Part shown: positions 36,191-52,365 of the stretch, one piece after another
Numbering within the stretch: the stretch's first letter is position 1
Layout: every line of letters starts with the position of its first letter
Source of the DNA: a virus
Lineage: Duplodnaviria > Heunggongvirae > Uroviricota > Caudoviricetes
Virus record (IMG/VR): IMGVR_UViG_3300037421_000106
Strand: one strand, 5' to 3'
Length of the DNA: 64,000 bases
The notes under the pieces: generated by a model
Seen by the model: the letters and a program-made list of their open reading frames with translations, nothing else
What the model was told of the DNA's origin: nothing
Database searches by the model: none
Position numbers and translations under genes: made by a program

Positions 36191-36436
36191 TCCGGTTGCG
36201 GATCCAATGCAAGTGATGATGCTGGTCAAGTGATTCGGCGCGGCGCGACCGCCTGCATTGGCCTATGAACGGTGTGCCCGGCAAAGCCAGGTATTCCACC
36301 GAAAGTTCGGCACGTCGGGCGGGTCACAGGTAATTAGCGCCTCGCCGCTTCGACTCGCAACCGGCGGCGCCGCCGGCCCTATCACTTGAACAGCATCATC
36401 GAGAGCGAGACTGTAGCACATGATCCGATCTGATGC

Positions 36437-36466
36437 AAGAAAAAAATAGGCCCCGAAGGGCCTATT
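36437..36466 (-). terminator. Rho-independent terminator (minus strand)
   Basis: AATAGGCCC-CGAA-GGGCCTATT hairpin followed on minus strand by TTTTTTTCTT, immediately after stop of 36470-37333. Confidence 0.7.
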
Positions 36467-36469
36467 AGG

Positions 36470-37333
36470 CTATCGCCTAACTGCGTCATCTCCACCACCG
36501 CCCCCGCCGCCACTCGGCGGAGAGACGTAATGCTGCTGCAGACCATTCCCCCAAATCGGAATGTAGGAGAAGAACGTAGCATTGTCGAGGATGCCGCAAT
36601 TGAATCCACCGCATCCCGAACCCGTGAACGTCACCAGATACGTTCCCGGCTGCAACACGTTCCCCGTGCTTTGGTTCAGGACCCATTCGTCGCACTGCAC
36701 CCAGGTGTTGCAGGCGTAGGTGGCGTGATTGAATTGCGCCACCGTCCCATCGCCCAAAAGAGCCGGCTGACCCGTCGAGACCCATTGCTGCAACATGCAA
36801 GGGGATCCGCCGCAGAAGCCCTGCCCCATCACCGGAACCGTGTTTCCGTTGGCATCAGTCGTAGTCTCCGGCACCGCCTGAACGATCGAGACTAGAGGCG
36901 CGCCATTAACGTCTGTTGCCGGCATGTATGTCAGATACGTCGGCGGAGGACATCCGCGCCCTGAACACACGCCTCGCCCTTCCTGACCGTACAACGTCCA
37001 CGGCATGTTGGTGATGACCCATCCGCCGCCAGCTGCCGTAGCTGCCGCGTCTGACGTGTAATAGCCGGAGAAACTGGCCTGGATAGCACCGGAGAAATCT
37101 TCAGTCACCAGAGGGTTGCCAGTGCCGCCAATGCGGAAAGTGGTCTGCGTGTATGTGCCGTTGACCAGTGCCCCTTGATAGATAGTCTCACGTCCGCTGT
37201 TACCCGCGGTGCTGATCTGCGGCGGAAACGGATTGGGGGTAGGACCCGCGCATGGCGCAGCGTGAGTGCACGTCTGCGCGAGCGCAAACGTCGAAAACAG
37301 CAATGCGAAACATCCTGCAATGAATTGCTTCAT
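36470..37333 (-). CDS. Secreted Cys-rich protein with poly-Gly C-terminus
   Basis: MKQFIAGCFALLFSTFALA-QTC signal peptide; many Cys; ends SGGGGGGGDDAVRR; own terminator. Confidence 0.45.
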   Translation of the reverse strand: MKQFIAGCFALLFSTFALAQTCTHAAPCAGPTPNPFPPQISTAGNSGRETIYQGALVNGTYTQTTFRIGGTGNPLVTEDFSGAIQASFSGYYTSDAAATAAGGGWVITNMPWTLYGQEGRGVCSGRGCPPPTYLTYMPATDVNGAPLVSIVQAVPETTTDANGNTVPVMGQGFCGGSPCMLQQWVSTGQPALLGDGTVAQFNHATYACNTWVQCDEWVLNQSTGNVLQPGTYLVTFTGSGCGGFNCGILDNATFFSYIPIWGNGLQQHYVSPPSGGGGGGGDDAVRR

Positions 37334-38334: not shown

Positions 38335-39981
38335 CTACACCTCATCCTCGTCAGGTAGATACCCCACGCGAGTGGGTGTCTCTCCGTCGGCGCGCTCGCG
38401 CACCAGGCCGTCGGTGAACTTGAATTGCGCCAGGCGTTGCACATTTGCAACAGCCTTCAGCTTCTCCAGCGTCTCTTCATCCGGAATGGCCAGCACCGCA
38501 TAGGCGTCAGCGCACGCGTCGACCCCGTCATCGTGGCGGCAGTCTGGGAACGGCCGGAAGTGATCCTTGACAGCGTCGGCGCAGTGTGCCATGACCGCGA
38601 CCCACCCCACGTTCAGCTGCGAGGCGAGTGGGTCTGCGCGTGTCTGTTTATCCGATCGCGCAGGGCGCTCCACAACTGTGTAACCGTCAAGCAGCTGTGT
38701 GATGGTCATGAATTGGTCGGTGCCTGCCTGGCCCGGCTCCACCGGCACCGCTATCTTCACGTCACGTCCGTCGCGATGTGCTGTTGCCTTCATCCGCGCC
38801 TTTACCTCATCCGGGCGCGCGCGAAACAGCATGAATTCCTCGATGACGTAGATGTGCACCTGGGGGTAGTACGCCAGCAGCACGCTCGCTGTGAAGTCGG
38901 GCTCGGTCCTACCCGCCTTGAGCTCACGCGCGGCCAGGTCCCATCCGCGGCAGGCTAGGCGAGGACCCGGCGGCCGCACCGTGATCACCGGCATAGCGTC
39001 GACCTTGAATGTCGTACCCGACACGTTGTACGGCTGCTGCATATACTGCGTGGCGAACTCCCACGGTTTCTGCAGGCGATACGCATGCAGCCACTCTGTA
39101 GTGGCGCCGCCTTCCCATCGCGAGTTGTCGTTCTCGTCGAGCGCGGTCAGAGTCAGGTTATGGAACTTGACGCCCAGGATGCTGGTCATGTCCTGACGCC
39201 CATGTTCATCTGGTAGATGAAGCTTCGAGAAAATGTCGTCCGTGGCGGCCCGCTGACCGATCACCAGGAACGGCGTGCGCGTCGTCTCGTTGCGTCGCGA
39301 GTTCACGACACCGCCGACGACGCTCAGCACTTCCTCCTTGCTGAGCTCGCTCTTGGCCTCCTGCAGTTTATGCAAGTCGTCCATGATCAGCGCGCCCGAG
39401 AAGCGATCGAGCACACCTTTGATGCCGACGCCGAAGCCCGTGATCTGGCCGTTGATGCCGACGAACTTCATGTTGCCGCCCTGCGTCGTCTTCGACACCT
39501 CCTTACTGTCGTTCTTCCGGTCGATGACGGTCCGCGGAAACAGCCGCTTGTACAGCGCTGATCCCATCATGTCGCGACGAATCAGGTCCGACGAGTCATT
39601 GGCCAGCTTCTCCGTCGAGCAGATATACATGATGTTACTGTCCGGGAAGCGCCCCATCCCGAACGCGATCCACATGCACACGATGTACGTCTTACCGAAC
39701 CGCGGCGGGATGTTGATGTCGGCGCCCAGGTACTTCCCCTCGAAGCACTGCTGTAAGAATTGCATGAGCGTCGTGTGGAACTCCTGCTCGTCAAACGGCC
39801 GCCCGTCGGAGAGCTCCATGTGCATCAGGTGCACGAAACTGCGGAAGTCCTGCCGGGCCATTGCCTCGCGCACGGCCTGGTGCTGCTCGGGCGTGAGTGC
39901 CTGCTCTGGCCCGGGCTCCTCGGGCGGCAAGACACCGTATGGCGTCACCTCCCACAGGATCGGATCATCTTGCAATCGCAT
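38335..39981 (-). CDS. Terminase large subunit
   Basis: Walker A-like PRFGKTY, DD-containing ATPase core (GALIMDDLHK), C-terminal nuclease-like region; preceded by TerS-like gene; start taken at MRLQDDP (upstream segment overlaps membrane-protein gene). Confidence 0.65.
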   Translation of the reverse strand: MRLQDDPILWEVTPYGVLPPEEPGPEQALTPEQHQAVREAMARQDFRSFVHLMHMELSDGRPFDEQEFHTTLMQFLQQCFEGKYLGADINIPPRFGKTYIVCMWIAFGMGRFPDSNIMYICSTEKLANDSSDLIRRDMMGSALYKRLFPRTVIDRKNDSKEVSKTTQGGNMKFVGINGQITGFGVGIKGVLDRFSGALIMDDLHKLQEAKSELSKEEVLSVVGGVVNSRRNETTRTPFLVIGQRAATDDIFSKLHLPDEHGRQDMTSILGVKFHNLTLTALDENDNSRWEGGATTEWLHAYRLQKPWEFATQYMQQPYNVSGTTFKVDAMPVITVRPPGPRLACRGWDLAARELKAGRTEPDFTASVLLAYYPQVHIYVIEEFMLFRARPDEVKARMKATAHRDGRDVKIAVPVEPGQAGTDQFMTITQLLDGYTVVERPARSDKQTRADPLASQLNVGWVAVMAHCADAVKDHFRPFPDCRHDDGVDACADAYAVLAIPDEETLEKLKAVANVQRLAQFKFTDGLVRERADGETPTRVGYLPDEDEV

Positions 39982-40253
39982 CAGAGGACCCAGACCAGCA
40001 CCGTCAGCGCGAATCCGATGCAGTAACCGCCGAAGTCGATCCACCCTGATTGAATTGACGCACCTTCTTCATGCAAGTCGAACCAGAACTCCTTCCACGC
40101 TGTGAACGCCACCGCGGCCGCGAGCCCGTACCAGCGCAGGCCGGGCAGCCAATGCGACCACAGCGCCAGCACCGTGAAGATCATGAACGCGTGCAGCTCC
40201 AACGACGTCGTGACGGGCGACAACATGTATTTCTTGAACCAATTCACGAACAT
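39981..40253 (-). CDS. Small integral membrane protein
   Basis: 90 aa with 3 hydrophobic segments between TerS and TerL. Confidence 0.4.
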   Translation of the reverse strand: MFVNWFKKYMLSPVTTSLELHAFMIFTVLALWSHWLPGLRWYGLAAAVAFTAWKEFWFDLHEEGASIQSGWIDFGGYCIGFALTVLVWVL

Positions 40254-47453: not shown

Positions 47454-47660
47454 GTATGACTGAGCTACGTACAGACTACGCGGCCGATCGTTTGCGCGCC
47501 GTGTCCGAATGCCTCGACACGATGAATGCGGGAAAGGCGGATCCGCTCGAAACACTTGAGGCAATCGCGGGCGCTATCTATGACGACCTTGTTTGACAAG
47601 GTTCAAGGCGCTTTAGATTTTTCAGAGGTGCACGCGCAAATGATCGAATTGCGACAGTAA

Positions 47661-47690
47661 CCCGCGTCTCTAGACGGCGCGGTTTTGTTG
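47661..47690 (+). terminator. Possible weak terminator (short GC stem + TTTTGTT)
   Basis: CCGCG...CGCGG followed by TTTTGTTG after short ORF ending 47597. Confidence 0.25.
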
Positions 47691-47830
47691 AGGGTGCGCA
47701 CGGCGCGCTAAGCCGGATGATCCGAGGTGCAACATGCGTAACTGATCGATCGACCCATTAACCAGTGTGAGAGTTACGCGGCCCGCGCAATCAAGCGGGT
47801 CGCTTTGCGGTCACATTGAAAGGGTAACCG

Positions 47831-48277
47831 ATGATCGATTGTTCCGATTTATCCGCGCGATCGCATGTTTCGATCGCGTTGCAATTTCTAAAATACGCAC
47901 GCGACGCGCTCAAAGCGGCAGAATGCCCCAATACGTTAGCACGCGTGCGCGCCGCGATCGACTCGTGCGAGGGTGCGTTACGCAATCAAGCGCACCGCGA
48001 CGCGTTCCCGGATCGCAAGCGTATCAAGACACCCAAAGCGCGCAACGTCGGCGCCCGTCAACGTCAGATACGCGCGGACGAAATGCGTACGGATCCGCAC
48101 GCGGCAGATATGCCATGTCCGCATTGGGATGATGTGCAAGCGGCAATAGACGCACCGCGTGATCGATACGGCAACCCGTTACCGGATGCACGCACACATG
48201 TTTATCCGGACGCGACACGCACCGCACCGCATACACAATTTGTGCGCGGCGCGTGGCGCGCGAAGCGGGGCGACTAA
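47831..48277 (+). CDS. Hypothetical protein
   Basis: 148-aa ORF after intergenic gap. Confidence 0.35.
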   Translation: MIDCSDLSARSHVSIALQFLKYARDALKAAECPNTLARVRAAIDSCEGALRNQAHRDAFPDRKRIKTPKARNVGARQRQIRADEMRTDPHAADMPCPHWDDVQAAIDAPRDRYGNPLPDARTHVYPDATRTAPHTQFVRGAWRAKRGD

Positions 48278-49017
48278 TGAAAAAACCCACCGGTTACGTG
48301 ATCTACCGGGGTCCGTCGCAATTGGATGGCGCGCCCATCGTTGCGATTGCCACGATGAAAAGCGACAATCGCAAGACGGGCAACATGGTGCAAACGTGGA
48401 TTTTGCGCGACGATCGGTCGCCCATGGAAACGTCCAAAGCGGGCGCCGATGGTTCAGTGTGCGGCGACTGTAAGCATCGATGGTCACTCGGTGGCGCGTG
48501 TTATGTCAACATCGGGCAGGGTCCGGGCGCGATCTTTCGCGCGTTCCAGCGCGGTAATTATCAAGACTTGACGCAAGCGAATTCCCCGCTTTGGGCAATC
48601 GCTCAGATCACGCGCGGCCGCACGGTGCGACTCGGCGCATACGGTGATCCCGCAGCGGTTCCCGTGCACGTCTGGGAAGCAATCACGGCGGAATCCGACG
48701 GGCACACGGGCTACACGCACCAATGGCGCAACCCCGTCGCTGAACCGCTGCGCGGGCTTTGCATGGCCAGCGTCGACACTCCCGATGAATACGCGGCCGC
48801 GCAGCGCGCGGGGTGGCGCACGTTTCGCGTGCGGTGCACGGATGACGATAGCGTTATGCCCCGTGAATTCGAGTGCGTCAGCGACACCAAGGGAACCGCT
48901 TGCGCCGATTGCCGCGCATGCGACGGTGCGGCGCGCGGCCCGGGTCAGGCATCGGTCTTTATCACGGTGCACGGGTCGTTAAAAAGCCGGTTCCCGGTAA
49001 CGATCGCCCGCGCGTGA
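48277..49017 (+). CDS. Hypothetical Cys-rich protein
   Basis: MKKPTGYVIYRG...; ~246 aa; CGDCKH, CADCRACDG clusters. Confidence 0.4.
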   Translation: MKKPTGYVIYRGPSQLDGAPIVAIATMKSDNRKTGNMVQTWILRDDRSPMETSKAGADGSVCGDCKHRWSLGGACYVNIGQGPGAIFRAFQRGNYQDLTQANSPLWAIAQITRGRTVRLGAYGDPAAVPVHVWEAITAESDGHTGYTHQWRNPVAEPLRGLCMASVDTPDEYAAAQRAGWRTFRVRCTDDDSVMPREFECVSDTKGTACADCRACDGAARGPGQASVFITVHGSLKSRFPVTIARA

Positions 49018-49591
49018 AACACCCCGCGCCACGGCGCGCCACGGGTCCGCCAGCGCGGGCCGGCCCGCTTTTGGTTATCCGCGCACCTCCCGAGCAAATG
49101 CGGGGCGCCAGCGCGCGCCTACGCGGCCGCGCGGGGTATCCGGATGCAGGCTATAGCTTGCCGTTTGCGCTCGAATGTGCAGGCTGTAGCCTGCCCGTGG
49201 GGTGTTGCGAAAACGCCACCGCAGCAAATGGTGCGGTGCGGATGAACGGTCGGTTTGATAGTGAGTACTGACATTTGGTGCAATGCAGCACGGCTGTCAG
49301 GGATTGCTGACAGGGAACCCCTACATGGGGACAGAGACGACTCGAGCCTGGAGGCCGACTATGGCGTCGCGCGCGGCATCATCGCGAACAGAGAACTCCG
49401 TAGAGACTGGCGCTTACAGCCGGCGCTGTGCGCATTTATCGAGTGCCAGTGGACGCGGGAGGATACAGACACTCTACGCCTACTCTGCAGTGGATGCATC
49501 GACGCACCTATGTGCGTGCCGACCGGATCTACGCTTGCGAATGCGATGAATGAGACATACGTGCGCGGAGTGCCTCGGTGACGACCCCTTA

Positions 49592-49652
49592 CCATCCATC
49601 CACCGGTATGTAAGCCATCCATCCACCGGTATGTAAGCCATCCATCCACCGG
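49592..49652 (+). repeat. 23-bp direct repeat (2.65 copies) immediately upstream of homing endonuclease start
   Basis: CCATCCATCCACCGGTATGTAAG x2 + CCATCCATCCACCGG; the last copy supplies GGAG SD for 49661. Confidence 0.8.
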
Positions 49653-49660
49653 AGATATCA

Positions 49661-50230
49661 ATGCGCATTGGCATTCTGTACATGCACGTGGGTCCAACTG
49701 GGAAGATCTATATTGGAAAGACATGGCAGCCAAAAGGCGAGCGCTTCAACGGAAATTGGGCGCGTCAATACACCAAATCCATGGCGGCCGATGCGTTGCG
49801 TTACGGCCGTAAAGCTTTCGAAACGATCGAGCTCTATCGGATAGAGAGCGAGGACCCGTCATATGACGACCAGCAACTGGCGATGCTGGAGATCATGGCT
49901 ATTGAATTATTCAACAGCAGGACTCCGCGCGGATACAACATCGCCCGAGGCGGCGGCCGAGCGCCAAGCGCGCCTGAAACATGCGCCAAGATCAGCGGCG
50001 AAGGAAACCCGATGTTCGGTCGGAAACACACGAAGCGAACAGTGAAACAAATGACAGAGGCGCGTCGGGCAGAAAATCTCCCGGAAGAACAACGCATAGC
50101 GATGCGAGAGGCAAATAAGTTGCGTCCGCGCAACGCGCGCGGGCATTATATCAAACTCGGGACTGAGTATCATCCCAATACACTTAAGCGGCGAGGTATA
50201 AAACCCTTGACCATCCAGCCGGGGGTATGA
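49661..50230 (+). CDS. GIY-YIG homing endonuclease with NUMOD3 repeats
   Basis: GILYMHVGPTGKIYIGKT...YNIARGG (GIY-YIG core) followed by NUMOD3-like repeats (PETCAKISGEGNPMFGRKHTKRTVKQM). Confidence 0.75.
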   Translation: MRIGILYMHVGPTGKIYIGKTWQPKGERFNGNWARQYTKSMAADALRYGRKAFETIELYRIESEDPSYDDQQLAMLEIMAIELFNSRTPRGYNIARGGGRAPSAPETCAKISGEGNPMFGRKHTKRTVKQMTEARRAENLPEEQRIAMREANKLRPRNARGHYIKLGTEYHPNTLKRRGIKPLTIQPGV

Positions 50231-50285
50231 TACAGTCGCACCCACGCTGACAGGTTCGTCAACAACCACCGAGGAGATACCCGAG

Positions 50286-50608
50286 TGACAAGCGAAGTGT
50301 TCAAGGACATGTCCCAAGTGGCGAAGGCCGGCGCGGCCTACGCCAAGGCCCAGGCGGAATTCAATGCCGCTGCCAAGCAGTGCGGCCTCATCATGAAGCC
50401 CCTGCACGATGCCGTCCAGGATGCCGATCAGCAGCTGAAGCTGGCGCTGAATAAGGCCGCCGAAGACGAAGCCAAGACCATCAAGGTCGACCTGGCTGCG
50501 TTGCTGCAAAAGGCGCTGGACGAGCAGGTTGCTGCGGCAGCTGTTGCCGCTGCGGCTGCGCAGCAAGGTGTGCCGGAAGGCGCCAACGGCCCCGCTGCAA
50601 ACGAGTAA
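50286..50608 (+). CDS. Hypothetical Ala-rich coiled-coil protein
   Basis: 107-aa ORF (start approximate). Confidence 0.35.
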
Positions 50609-50807
50609 CCATCCCTCCGGGGCGCCACGACGGGCCCACCAATTTCAGGAGATCACGGAATGATGACCGAAATCAAGATTGTCACTCCCGCCATTCGCGT
50701 CGTTGGTGAATTGGTTTGGAGTGACTGATGATGACCTTCTTATGCGTTCTAGCATACGCGCTGGTCGCATCATGGTTCATCGCATTCCTCTACCACTGGA
50801 GTAAGTG

Positions 50808-50945
50808 ATGGCAATCTTCAAAGGCGTCGAGACCGAAAAGTCGCAACGCAAGCCGAACAGGCAGGCGCGCAAAAAGCTTCGCACCAGACGCACCAAGATC
50901 CAGCAGATGATTCTGGCCAAGGTCAGAGCGCAGGGGAAGCGATGA
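50808..50945 (+). CDS. Small basic protein (45 aa), not in ORF track
   Basis: MAIFKGVETEKSQRKPNRQARKKLRTRRTKIQQMILAKVRAQGKR*. Confidence 0.25.
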   Translation: MAIFKGVETEKSQRKPNRQARKKLRTRRTKIQQMILAKVRAQGKR

Positions 50946-51307
50946 GCTCGCTACCGGTCGATTCAAAAGCACGCAAAGAGATGCCGATGGCGCGGGGTTT
51001 GTTGGATTACTTCACAGCTGCTCTAGCTGCCGTTGCTGAAGTAAGTTTCCACGGCAATCAGAAGCATAATCCTGGCGAACCGATGCATCACGCACGCGGT
51101 AAATCGGCAGACCATGCGGACTGCGTTGTTCGTCATTTATCAGAACGAGGAACGTTCGACGAAGAGGAATATCCTGGCGGCCCCCGATTGCGTCACAGTG
51201 CCAAGATGGTATGGCGCGCGCTCGCATTGCTCCAGCAGGAACTAGAAGATGCCGGCGAGGCTCCATTGGCCAGAGGGGCACGTCTACCTGAGGACACCCC
51301 GCGATGA
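50942..51307 (+). CDS. Hypothetical protein (possible dATP/dGTP diphosphohydrolase-like N-domain)
   Basis: 121 aa; LLDYFTAALAAVAEVSFHGNQKHNPGEPMHHARG...RHL pattern vaguely recalls phage dNTP diphosphohydrolase N-domains; unverified. Confidence 0.25.
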   Translation: MSSLPVDSKARKEMPMARGLLDYFTAALAAVAEVSFHGNQKHNPGEPMHHARGKSADHADCVVRHLSERGTFDEEEYPGGPRLRHSAKMVWRALALLQQELEDAGEAPLARGARLPEDTPR

Positions 51308-51639
51308 TAGTCGGTGCTGCGTTTCAACAGCTGTTCGCCGGCATCGGCAAGGTCATTCACAACGTCTTCGTGTCGCTCGACTACGCAGGCTCGATGATCC
51401 TGTGGCTGAACGAGGAGGAACCTATGACCGTCAGCAGCCGCTGCGGCCTGGCATTACGTCAGGAGCTGCCTGGCTTACAGCAAGCGGCTCTGCGCGATTT
51501 GGGACGCATGTTGAACCTGCTCGATCGTGCTGCATTGAGACGAGGGTCGACTCACTGCGAAGAATCAATCGGTGCCGACATCGATCGCGCCGATCGCTCC
51601 AAAGCACGACTCATGACCCATCCCTCCACCGGAGAATGA
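51304..51639 (+). CDS. Hypothetical protein
   Basis: 111-aa ORF. Confidence 0.3.
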   Translation: MIVGAAFQQLFAGIGKVIHNVFVSLDYAGSMILWLNEEEPMTVSSRCGLALRQELPGLQQAALRDLGRMLNLLDRAALRRGSTHCEESIGADIDRADRSKARLMTHPSTGE

Positions 51640-51640
51640 C

Positions 51641-51907
51641 ATGGAACTCGAACAAATGGTTGATCTGTTAGTAGCGGCCGCCAAAAAGGCATCCGAATCT
51701 ACCGGCAAACCTTTGTCAGAACTTGGCACGGACAAAGCTAGGTTTATAGCCGATATGCAGAGTGAGCCCGAAATCTTTGCACTCTTCAATGAGTTCGGAA
51801 AGCTTTATACGAATGCCGAGCTCGCGCAATTGAATCAATCCGGAGAGCTCGCCGGTAAAGCTGCAACACTCGATGCGCTGCTGTCGCGCGGGGTGTCATT
51901 CACGTGA
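51641..51907 (+). CDS. Hypothetical protein
   Basis: 88-aa ORF. Confidence 0.3.
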   Translation: MELEQMVDLLVAAAKKASESTGKPLSELGTDKARFIADMQSEPEIFALFNEFGKLYTNAELAQLNQSGELAGKAATLDALLSRGVSFT

Positions 51908-52365
51908 TGAAGCATTCATTGAAATGGGACAAACGGTTCCTTCATCTGGCTGAGGTCGTGGCCAGCTGGAGCAAGGATCCGTCGACCCAGGTCGGGGCCG
52001 TCATTGTCGACGCTGATAAGCGCATCGTCAGCGTCGGCTTTAACGGATTCCCTCGTCACATGCAAGACGGTGCTGAGCTCTATGCCAACCGCGAGTTCAA
52101 GTACAGTCGCATCATCCACGGGGAAATGAATGCGATCTTGCATGCGCGCGAATCGCTAGCCGACATGACGCTATATACTTGGCCGGTGCTACCGTGTGAT
52201 CGCTGCGCGGTGCATGTGATCCAATCTGGCATCGCGAGAGTAGTGGCGCCGACGTGTCCTGCGCACATGGTCGAACGGTGGGGATCATCGCTTGCCAAGA
52301 CTCGAGAATTCTTTAGAGAGGCTCGCGTGTCATTCAACGAAGGTGGAGCGGGGTACGACGTATGA
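51904..52365 (+). CDS. dCMP (deoxycytidylate) deaminase
   Basis: Zinc-binding cytidine/dCMP deaminase motifs HGEMNAI and PCDRCA. Confidence 0.7.
   Translation: MMKHSLKWDKRFLHLAEVVASWSKDPSTQVGAVIVDADKRIVSVGFNGFPRHMQDGAELYANREFKYSRIIHGEMNAILHARESLADMTLYTWPVLPCDRCAVHVIQSGIARVVAPTCPAHMVERWGSSLAKTREFFREARVSFNEGGAGYDV

Follow-up and report, generated by a model that had tools for sequence, protein, structure and literature searches.

The seg and mob genes of phage T4 are free-standing endonuclease cassettes that lie in intergenic positions between conserved genes, often without a promoter of their own (PMC2988022), and phage nuclease genes are known to mark exchange boundaries and to undergo domain swaps (Barth, Dunham and Seed 2023, PMC10448857). 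Here we describe a locus at positions 49018-50230 of a 64-kb stretch of the virus record IMGVR_UViG_3300037421_000106 (the window, by which we mean this whole stretch), which spans most of the ~70-kb genome of a lytic-type phage encoding a DNA polymerase, a primase-helicase, a helicase, a terminase large subunit (TerL) and a portal protein. The locus sits in a long run of plus-strand genes of the early/replication region, and we propose, with a probability of roughly 0.8, that it carries a free-standing GIY-YIG homing endonuclease gene in a hypervariable slot, beside a repeat array that belongs to the phage rather than to the endonuclease.

Like T4 SegA-G, the predicted protein combines GIY-YIG and NUMOD-type regions within ~190 residues, and its gene, too, is intergenic between conserved genes and polymorphic for presence and absence among relatives; as with several seg and mob genes, it is a cassette consisting of an open reading frame (ORF) only, placed in a host transcription unit and apparently promoter-less in the window. 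Unlike the seg genes, the window ORF ends inside the next promoter, is at most ~30% identical to annotated endonucleases, resides in a high-GC ~70-kb metagenome phage and is known from sequence alone. I-TevI, from the T4 td intron, belongs to the same family by the TIGR01453 model and shows weak similarity in its DNA-binding region; as at the I-TevI operator, a sequence resembling the DNA beside the insertion point recurs in relatives, overlying a promoter-like element ahead of the ORF. In contrast to I-TevI, the window locus has no intron, and the recurring motif is also found without an endonuclease and at two unrelated gene junctions. Finally, the exchange-boundary systems (PMC10448857) share with this locus the use of one slot by different nuclease families, the swapping of a nuclease domain for unrelated genes (in the relative L001, an IMG/VR contig of 71.8 kb) and mosaic flanks, exemplified here by a deoxycytidylate (dCMP) deaminase of 35-38% identity among neighbours above 90%, whereas our slot is a small single-gene site rather than an island of more than 10 kb and is again known only from its sequence.

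The gene in question is the following:
49661-50230, plus strand: intact gene for a predicted free-standing GIY-YIG (I-TevI/Seg-type) homing endonuclease of 189 residues (profiles, alignment, conservation)

Its ATG start codon is preceded, 6 nt upstream, by a GGAG Shine-Dalgarno (SD) sequence (49651-49654), and its product matches two PHROG families annotated as homing endonuclease, PHROG 314 with an expectation value (E) of 1.3e-17 and PHROG 7168 at 2.9e-6. By tblastn the ORF matches annotated GIY-YIG/Seg-like endonuclease genes, and it aligns (E 5e-18) to gp018 of Enterococcus phage VD13, in which Pfam detects GIY-YIG over residues 1-84 at 2.6e-12 as well as NUMOD3. The TIGR01453 'group I intron endonuclease' model covers residues 9-143 with an E of 4.8e-9 and 36.5 bits, below its cut-off of 56.05. 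The diagnostic GIY...YIG motif pair is present at a distance of ~10 residues, as GILY at residues 4-7 and YIG at residues 17-19 (MRIGILYMHVGPTGKIYIGKT); the former is a variant, and the YIG region aligns with KQYVGQT of VD13 gp018. The YIG motif, R28 (ERFN), E77 (LEIMAIE) and N93 (GYNIA) are invariant in four homologues with identities down to 61%, and the contexts of the three single residues align with KRFN, LEIIEIE and GYNL of VD13 gp018; by analogy with the family, Arg28, Glu77 and Asn93 would be the catalytic residues. Phmmer and profile searches of the PDB, together with an hhalign comparison against I-TevI, recovered a NUMOD3-like stretch only. The architecture that we predict is accordingly a GIY-YIG nuclease domain at the N-terminus with a NUMOD3-type DNA-binding tail behind it, and the claim of an intact GIY-YIG homing endonuclease, made in an earlier reading of the letters without database searches (the sequence-only reading), is borne out by PHROG 314, TIGR01453 and the VD13 gp018 alignment. 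Furthermore, the protein is under purifying selection, as shown by identities to the L204 gene of 0.95/0.96/0.61 at the three codon positions, with similar patterns for L299 and L300. With identities of ~30% at most to any annotated phage endonuclease, we consider it a putative divergent new member of the free-standing GIY-YIG homing endonucleases, housed in a slot prone to recombination.

A megablast search of the 50,697 deposited phage genomes in INPHARED returned no relative of the window, and relatives were found in metagenome collections only; the host phage group is high in GC, ~70 kb in size and has soil-type metagenomes as its sole source. Eight related contigs were compared, namely L001, the Joint Genome Institute (JGI) metagenome contigs L202, L203 and L204, the Logan assemblies L299 and L300, and the JGI contigs L301 and L303, the last of which was reached via the small-ORF homologue P0006. 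The slot lies at one fixed syntenic position, with a small Cys-rich gene on its left and the next operon's sigma-70-type promoter on its right, and is framed by the following features:
48253-49017, plus strand: upstream Cys-rich gene of 254 residues, PHROG 2554 at 2.3e-72, left border of the locus
49363-49581, plus strand: conserved 72 codons of a small Cys-rich gene (homologous ORFs, ratio of nonsynonymous to synonymous substitution rates, dN/dS)
49592-49652, plus strand: three CCATCCATCC cores (at 49592, 49615 and 49638) with a 23-nt period (Tandem Repeats Finder, TRF)
50207-50236, plus strand: sigma-70-type promoter-like site, TTGACC, 18-nt spacer and TGATACAGT as extended -10 (promoter scan, conservation)
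50285-50608, plus strand: downstream gene of 107 residues that closes the slot on the right, with 70-99% identity across all relatives

The upstream PHROG 2554 gene is 80-95% identical in L202, L203, L204, L001, L299 and L300, and the downstream gene is kept in relatives with or without the endonuclease. Most informative is L202, in which the slot is empty: it matches the window over 48000-49655 and again from 50200 on, lacks only the endonuclease segment and shows the junction ...CCATCCATCCACCGGAGAATG|GAATCAAAACCCCTTGACC..., with small gene, core array, promoter and downstream gene contiguous. As this endonuclease-less contig keeps both flanks, the endonuclease-specific DNA can be bounded to about 49656-50194, and the SD region as well as the last ~12 codons and stop of the endonuclease are phage sequence that exists without it. 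The small upstream gene and the 106-residue downstream gene of L202 are complete and of the same lengths as in endonuclease-bearing relatives, and we therefore regard the endonuclease as a free-standing gene, lying between complete genes that are adjacent in a relative without it. Indeed, its insertion leaves both neighbours and the promoter intact, because the ORF borrows the phage SD and ends in the promoter's own TGA: in the window (50228-50230) and in L204 its stop codon coincides with the TGA of the extended -10, and in L001, L299 and L300 with the TGA inside TTGACC.

The same comparison bears on the proposal of the sequence-only reading that the endonuclease ORF might lie within a group I intron, or an intron-like RNA, which would span 49018-50230 and be spliced from a host gene. 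GIY-YIG endonucleases of this family are often intron-encoded, the best curated model is itself named after group I introns, and the region upstream of the endonuclease folds somewhat better than shuffled sequence (z -2.6); nevertheless, we consider an intron hardly credible. An Infernal cmscan of window positions 47500-51500 against 4227 Rfam families gave nothing relevant, and neither group I nor group II intron models, at E<=10, and L202, L204 and L300 gave no intron match at E<=1. The flanking ORFs are whole, the upstream ones stopping at conserved stop codons and the downstream gene having its own SD and GTG start, and L202 retains the entire upstream region, noncoding part and repeats included, with identical, continuous flanking ORFs and without the endonuclease. 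In addition, the supposedly structured stretch contains a gene under purifying selection, as the ORF at 49255-49581, previously dismissed as unconvincing, holds a real conserved gene, and the RNAalifold covariation term is positive, which amounts to a penalty on structure. Both the intron models and the alignment to an endonuclease-less relative thus speak for the free-standing gene.

Occupancy of the slot varies widely. The endonuclease is intact in the window, L204 (91% amino acid identity), L299 (76%) and L300 (60%), and has suffered an internal deletion of residues 34-111 in L301. In L001 (7386-8218) only its first six codons (MRIGIL) and C-terminal ~90 residues are left, and the gap between them is filled by a 93-residue ORF and a 184-residue DNA methyltransferase (PHROG 757, 3e-71). 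In L303 (414-776) the slot houses an HNH/EndoVII-type ORF instead, with PHROG 26577 at 1.2e-20, PHROG 1035 at 1e-6 and the motif HHVDHIVPL...GLH...NL...N..KG. This series fits the cycle that free-standing homing endonucleases usually go through, in which, during mixed infection, the enzyme would cut endonuclease-less relatives near the slot and repair would copy the gene in, and in which the copies would over time degenerate or be replaced; the intact, deleted, domain-replaced, HNH/EndoVII-bearing and empty states are those that such a cycle of invasion, degeneration and replacement would leave. The eight contigs could therefore offer a compact natural series in the poorly sampled high-GC soil phages, whose stages can be read as entry of the gene, its retention by selection, a deletion within it, exchange of one domain for a methyltransferase cassette, displacement by a different nuclease, and loss.

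The direct repeats ahead of the endonuclease, described earlier as 2.65 copies of a 23-bp unit, are confirmed by TRF (49592-49652, period 23, 2.7 copies, 100% matches, score 122) and by shuffling, with two occurrences of the full 23-mer versus none in 100 shuffled sequences. The unit reads CCATCCATCCACCGGTATGTAAG. Its third copy passes into the GGAG of the SD (49651-49654); the statement that this copy supplies the SD is roughly right, the GG of the SD being the end of the partial third copy. The 10-nt core CCATCCNTCC occurs five times in the 64 kb, always on the plus strand, versus 0.59 expected, and the copies outside the array are:
50609-50618, plus strand: further core (CCATCCCTCC) directly after the stop of the 107-residue gene, at the same junction in L001, L202, L204, L301 and L303
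51618-51643, plus strand: another core together with an SD and a start (CCATCCCTCCACCGGAGAATGAcATG), where genes 51304-51639 and 51641-51907 meet

The copy at 51618 is nearly identical to the last repeat and endonuclease start of L001, L299 and L301. At the array position itself, two to three cores are found in L001, L202, L204, L299, L300, L301 and L303, with spacers that differ by lineage: two cores 40 nt apart in L001, L202 and L299; three cores with periods of 23 and 39 in L204 and L301; three cores with periods of 23 and 62, one of them the variant CCGTCCATCC, in L300; and two cores at period 23, with units CCATCCATCCAGATAGGGTATAC, in L303. The cores are conserved across lineages while the spacers vary, the latter being often palindromic (ACCGGT in the window, GGGTATACCC in L303, GGCT-CTC-AGCC in L300). 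As cores occur with or without the endonuclease, the 23-bp repeat is best read as belonging to the phage, a rearranged variant of a conserved core array and not a product of the endonuclease. The earlier suggestion of a target site duplicated by homing does not survive the comparison, with two to three cores in every relative, including the endonuclease-less L202 and L303 with its different nuclease.

The conserved CCATCCATCC array at its 23-nt period is the sole mildly unusual element of the locus, and the possibility that it is regulatory, also raised by the sequence-only reading, is still live. In every relative with readable sequence, the last inter-core spacer contains an extended -10-like element, TGnTATACT in most (TGATATACT in L204, TGGTATACT in L301, TGGCATACT in L001 and L202, TGGTACACT in L300), the L299 spacer being GGGTATACT, with a hexamer that lacks the TG. 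An element of this kind between cores could drive the endonuclease in the relatives. In the window a duplicate of the 8-nt short spacer has taken the place of this spacer, and on account of the loss of the element the window endonuclease is probably expressed by read-through transcription only. The first core and its left flank resemble the -35 and spacer of the downstream promoter-like site (CCCTTA-CCATCCATCC-ACCGG vs CCCTTGA-CCATCCAGCC-GGGG), whose spacer harbours a degenerate fourth core (CCATCCAGCC, 50211-50220). Both boxes of that site are kept, and its spacer has diverged, in L001, L202, L204, L299, L300, L301 and L303, with variants such as TTGACC...TGCTACAGT in L300 and TTGCCA...TGATACAGT in L303, where the spacer carries a perfect CCATCCATCC core. 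The TGnTACAGT signature occurs three times in the window versus 0.65 expected, and at 36410-36470 on the minus strand an intrinsic terminator (GGCCCTTCGGGGCC followed by seven T) is directly succeeded by TTGCAT, a 17-nt spacer and TGCTACAGT, which suggests that TGnTACAGT marks a recurrent promoter type in this phage.

From these arrangements we infer that the cores are putative binding sites of a regulatory protein acting on tandem promoter-like modules. A more ambitious version, in which the CCATCCATCC core would be a previously undescribed cis-element serving as protein-binding array, tandem promoter control and nuclease landing pad, and perhaps bound by the endonuclease as an autorepressor, strikes us as unlikely, if worth keeping in mind. 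Somewhat more doubtful still is the narrower idea that the repeats are sites of the endonuclease itself, operator copies that mimic its homing site and allow I-TevI-like autorepression and nuclease landing. There is precedent in I-TevI, which represses its own promoter via an operator resembling its homing site (PMC2988022); 13 nt separate the last core from the insertion point, and in the empty allele another core-like sequence follows ~20 nt to the right of that point; the upstream core of the relatives occupies the -35 position of the extended -10-like element ahead of the endonuclease; and two different nuclease families use the slot beside the array. Against this stand the presence of the array in the endonuclease-less L202 and in L303 with its other nuclease, the extra cores at 50609 and 51618, which adjoin genes that are not endonucleases, and the window itself, in which the promoter-like spacer was lost and the cores were retained.

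Alternatively, the repeats might act as RNA, forming a C-rich unstructured leader for a translational regulator or for Rho that would control the endonuclease and two further genes. The cores are indeed all on the sense strand and 5' of an SD (those of the endonuclease and of the genes at 50662 and 51641), and the repeat-bearing leader is G-poor and unstructured (z about 0), but the core-like copy in the downstream promoter would fall upstream of the transcription start, no conserved hairpin sequesters the ribosome-binding site (RBS), and such a mechanism has no known protein partner, so that we rate it as improbable. For the leaders of the window, L204, L299, L300 and L301, the folding z scores range from -0.74 to +0.54, with no conserved structure over the SD; a hairpin-regulated leader like those of I-TevI, segB and mobE was consequently rejected, as these leaders fold no better than shuffled sequence. 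Scans of IMG/VR for the 15-mer returned chance matches only and scans for paired cores mostly (CCAT)n microsatellites, and the core is not enriched near PHROG 2554 genes (2 matches vs 2.7 expected in 173 loci).

A number of observations weigh against our account of a free-standing GIY-YIG endonuclease beside phage-owned regulatory repeats. Pfam PF01541 (GIY-YIG) does not match the window protein at E<=1, NUMOD3, at 19.7 bits, falls short of its 20.4-bit cut-off, and the TIGR01453 score, too, is under its curated threshold; since these thresholds are missed, family membership rests, PHROG matches aside, on sub-threshold and transitive evidence. An AlphaFold2 model has an overall predicted local distance difference test (pLDDT) score of 58.7, with a beta-beta-alpha-beta-alpha arrangement over residues 1-88 at 51-84 per 10-residue block, and a Foldseek search of the PDB with this low-confidence model gave no match at E<=0.001, the GIY-YIG-family protein 1zg2 appearing only at E 2.7. 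The L202 junction has a 3-4-nt microhomology, and L202 might represent a secondary deletion instead of a never-invaded site. Lastly, no -10-like element accompanies the cores at 50609 and 51618, copies that a promoter element would leave unexplained, and the promoter and operator roles rest on conservation in eight sequences from ~4 lineages.

The direct repeats and the hairpins upstream of them had also raised the possibility of an iteron-type origin or a pac/cos site. Direct repeats with a 23-24-nt period in noncoding DNA are iteron-like, the phage encodes its own primase-helicase and polymerase, and in another phage clade 24-nt arrays with the same core lie just upstream of terminase genes. 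Set against this, the cumulative GC skew has its minimum at ~41 kb, where the direction of transcription switches, and rises monotonically through 44-54 kb; the locus has no AT-rich segment (local GC 53-68%); a distance of 10-20 kb separates the locus from the terminase and portal genes, which lie on the opposite strand, with TerL at 38335-40044 (minus strand); and close relatives differ freely in the number and spacing of their cores. We thus give an origin or packaging site very little credence, albeit a shade more than an intron. The value of the locus is mainly one of annotation, as a proposed free-standing GIY-YIG endonuclease with a small conserved ORFan and a promoter region, not an intron or origin, and the core array next to the slot would be a concrete and cheap target for binding and promoter assays if such a phage were cultivated.

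The remainder of the locus, upstream of the array, was earlier taken as ~640 bp of noncoding DNA. This description holds for 49018 to about 49325-49362 and fails for 49363-49581, where the small gene is found. The first part is delimited as follows:
49018-49362, plus strand: conserved noncoding region (indels that are not multiples of 3, conservation)

Its truly noncoding part is the first ~310 nt (49018-49325), out of about 310-345 nt in total, and the final ~40 nt represent what is left, in rearranged form, of the start region of the small gene. Relatives differ in 49018-49325 by indels of 14, 15, 26 and ~110 nt, and the identity over this part (58-94%) beats that at the third codon positions of the flanking genes in four of four comparisons, e.g. 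93.5% vs 58% for L204 and 87% vs 59% for L299. We conclude that 49018-49362 is a conserved, probably regulatory, intergenic region, in which scanning and inspection by eye revealed no convincing sigma-70 promoter within the conserved blocks. The epithet hairpin-rich is justified to a modest extent, with minimum free energies relative to shuffled sequence of z = -2.6 on the plus strand and -2.1 on the minus strand. The palindromes cited in its favour map to a long hairpin made of two 16-nt imperfect palindromes (49146-49161 and 49179-49194) and to a 7-bp hairpin at 49294-49313, and the one quoted as AGCTATAGCT actually reads GGCTATAGCTT; a terminator-like hairpin with a T-run at 49055-49072 is confined to the window lineage. 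One long hairpin shows a compensatory change, compensatory pairs being few overall and drawn from effectively 2-4 lineages, and RNAalifold gave positive covariation terms with four and six sequences as well as for the 3' 130 nt, with no net support for structure. A structured noncoding RNA in 49018-49330, considered as a candidate, is accordingly unsupported. Within this region, L202 (1385-1510) and L203 carry, at a position corresponding to ~49136 of the window, a ~110-nt insertion composed of two ~55-nt copies, each with a near-perfect 17-bp hairpin (GTCCGCGCCTGGTCC-GAGAAATA-CCGGGACCAGGCGCGGAC); it resembles a small palindromic mobile or duplicating element, and Rfam gave spurious microRNA-precursor matches only.

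The small Cys-rich gene is identified by the motif ...RDWRLxPxLCAxIxCxW.RED...LRLLCxGCID..., by homologues with ATG and SD in L204 (83 residues) and in L001, L202 and L299 (79 residues), and by a dN/dS of 0.24-0.30, with changes mostly at third positions. An exhaustive HMMER search for a wider family gave two other clusters at 50% identity, and a word-indexed search one match; we take the gene to be a real, clade-restricted ORFan, as judged from these homologues. In the window, an insertion and a 13-nt deletion relative to L204 make the stretch from ATG to the conserved part 5 nt longer, which shifts the ATG codons at 49325 and 49361 out of frame; the latter has GGAGG upstream yet opens the wrong frame, and the only in-frame start is a TTG at 49255 that lacks a clear SD. 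The window copy may possibly be disrupted at its 5' end (pseudogenisation), use an unusual TTG start or reflect a sequence error. At the position of the small gene, L300 has an unrelated PHROG 8231 ORF.

Several further observations concern the surroundings of the array and slot in relatives and in other phages. In another phage clade (L311:7660-7790 and L315:3030-3130, also L328, L333, L338 and L342), three to four tandem 24-nt units consist of a CCGRC-GCA-GYCGG palindrome, which comes in two variants distinguished by compensatory changes, followed by CCATCCATC; these arrays occupy a divergent intergenic region just upstream of a 200-residue ORF, TerL and portal genes, with a PHROG 2554 homologue 1.5-2 kb away. 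Right after the CCATCCATCC core that follows the homologue of gene 50285-50608, L001 (8925-9045) and L202 (2480-2600) have a ~120-nt stretch that the window lacks. It includes two T-arm-like motifs (GGTTCGAWTCC) and what may be an acceptor pairing; ARAGORN and Rfam were both negative for a tRNA in it. Homologues of the PHROG 757 methyltransferase found in the L001 slot lie beside PHROG 2554 genes in numerous distant phages (L045, L060, L061, L074, L221, L285 and others), and this adjacency hints at a functional pairing of the Cys-rich PHROG 2554 protein with a DNA methyltransferase. Finally, the dCMP deaminase of the window (51904-52365) is 35-38% identical to the gene at the same position in L001, L204, L299, L300 and L301, while the genes on both sides are 90-98% identical, indicating module replacement and strong mosaicism around the locus.

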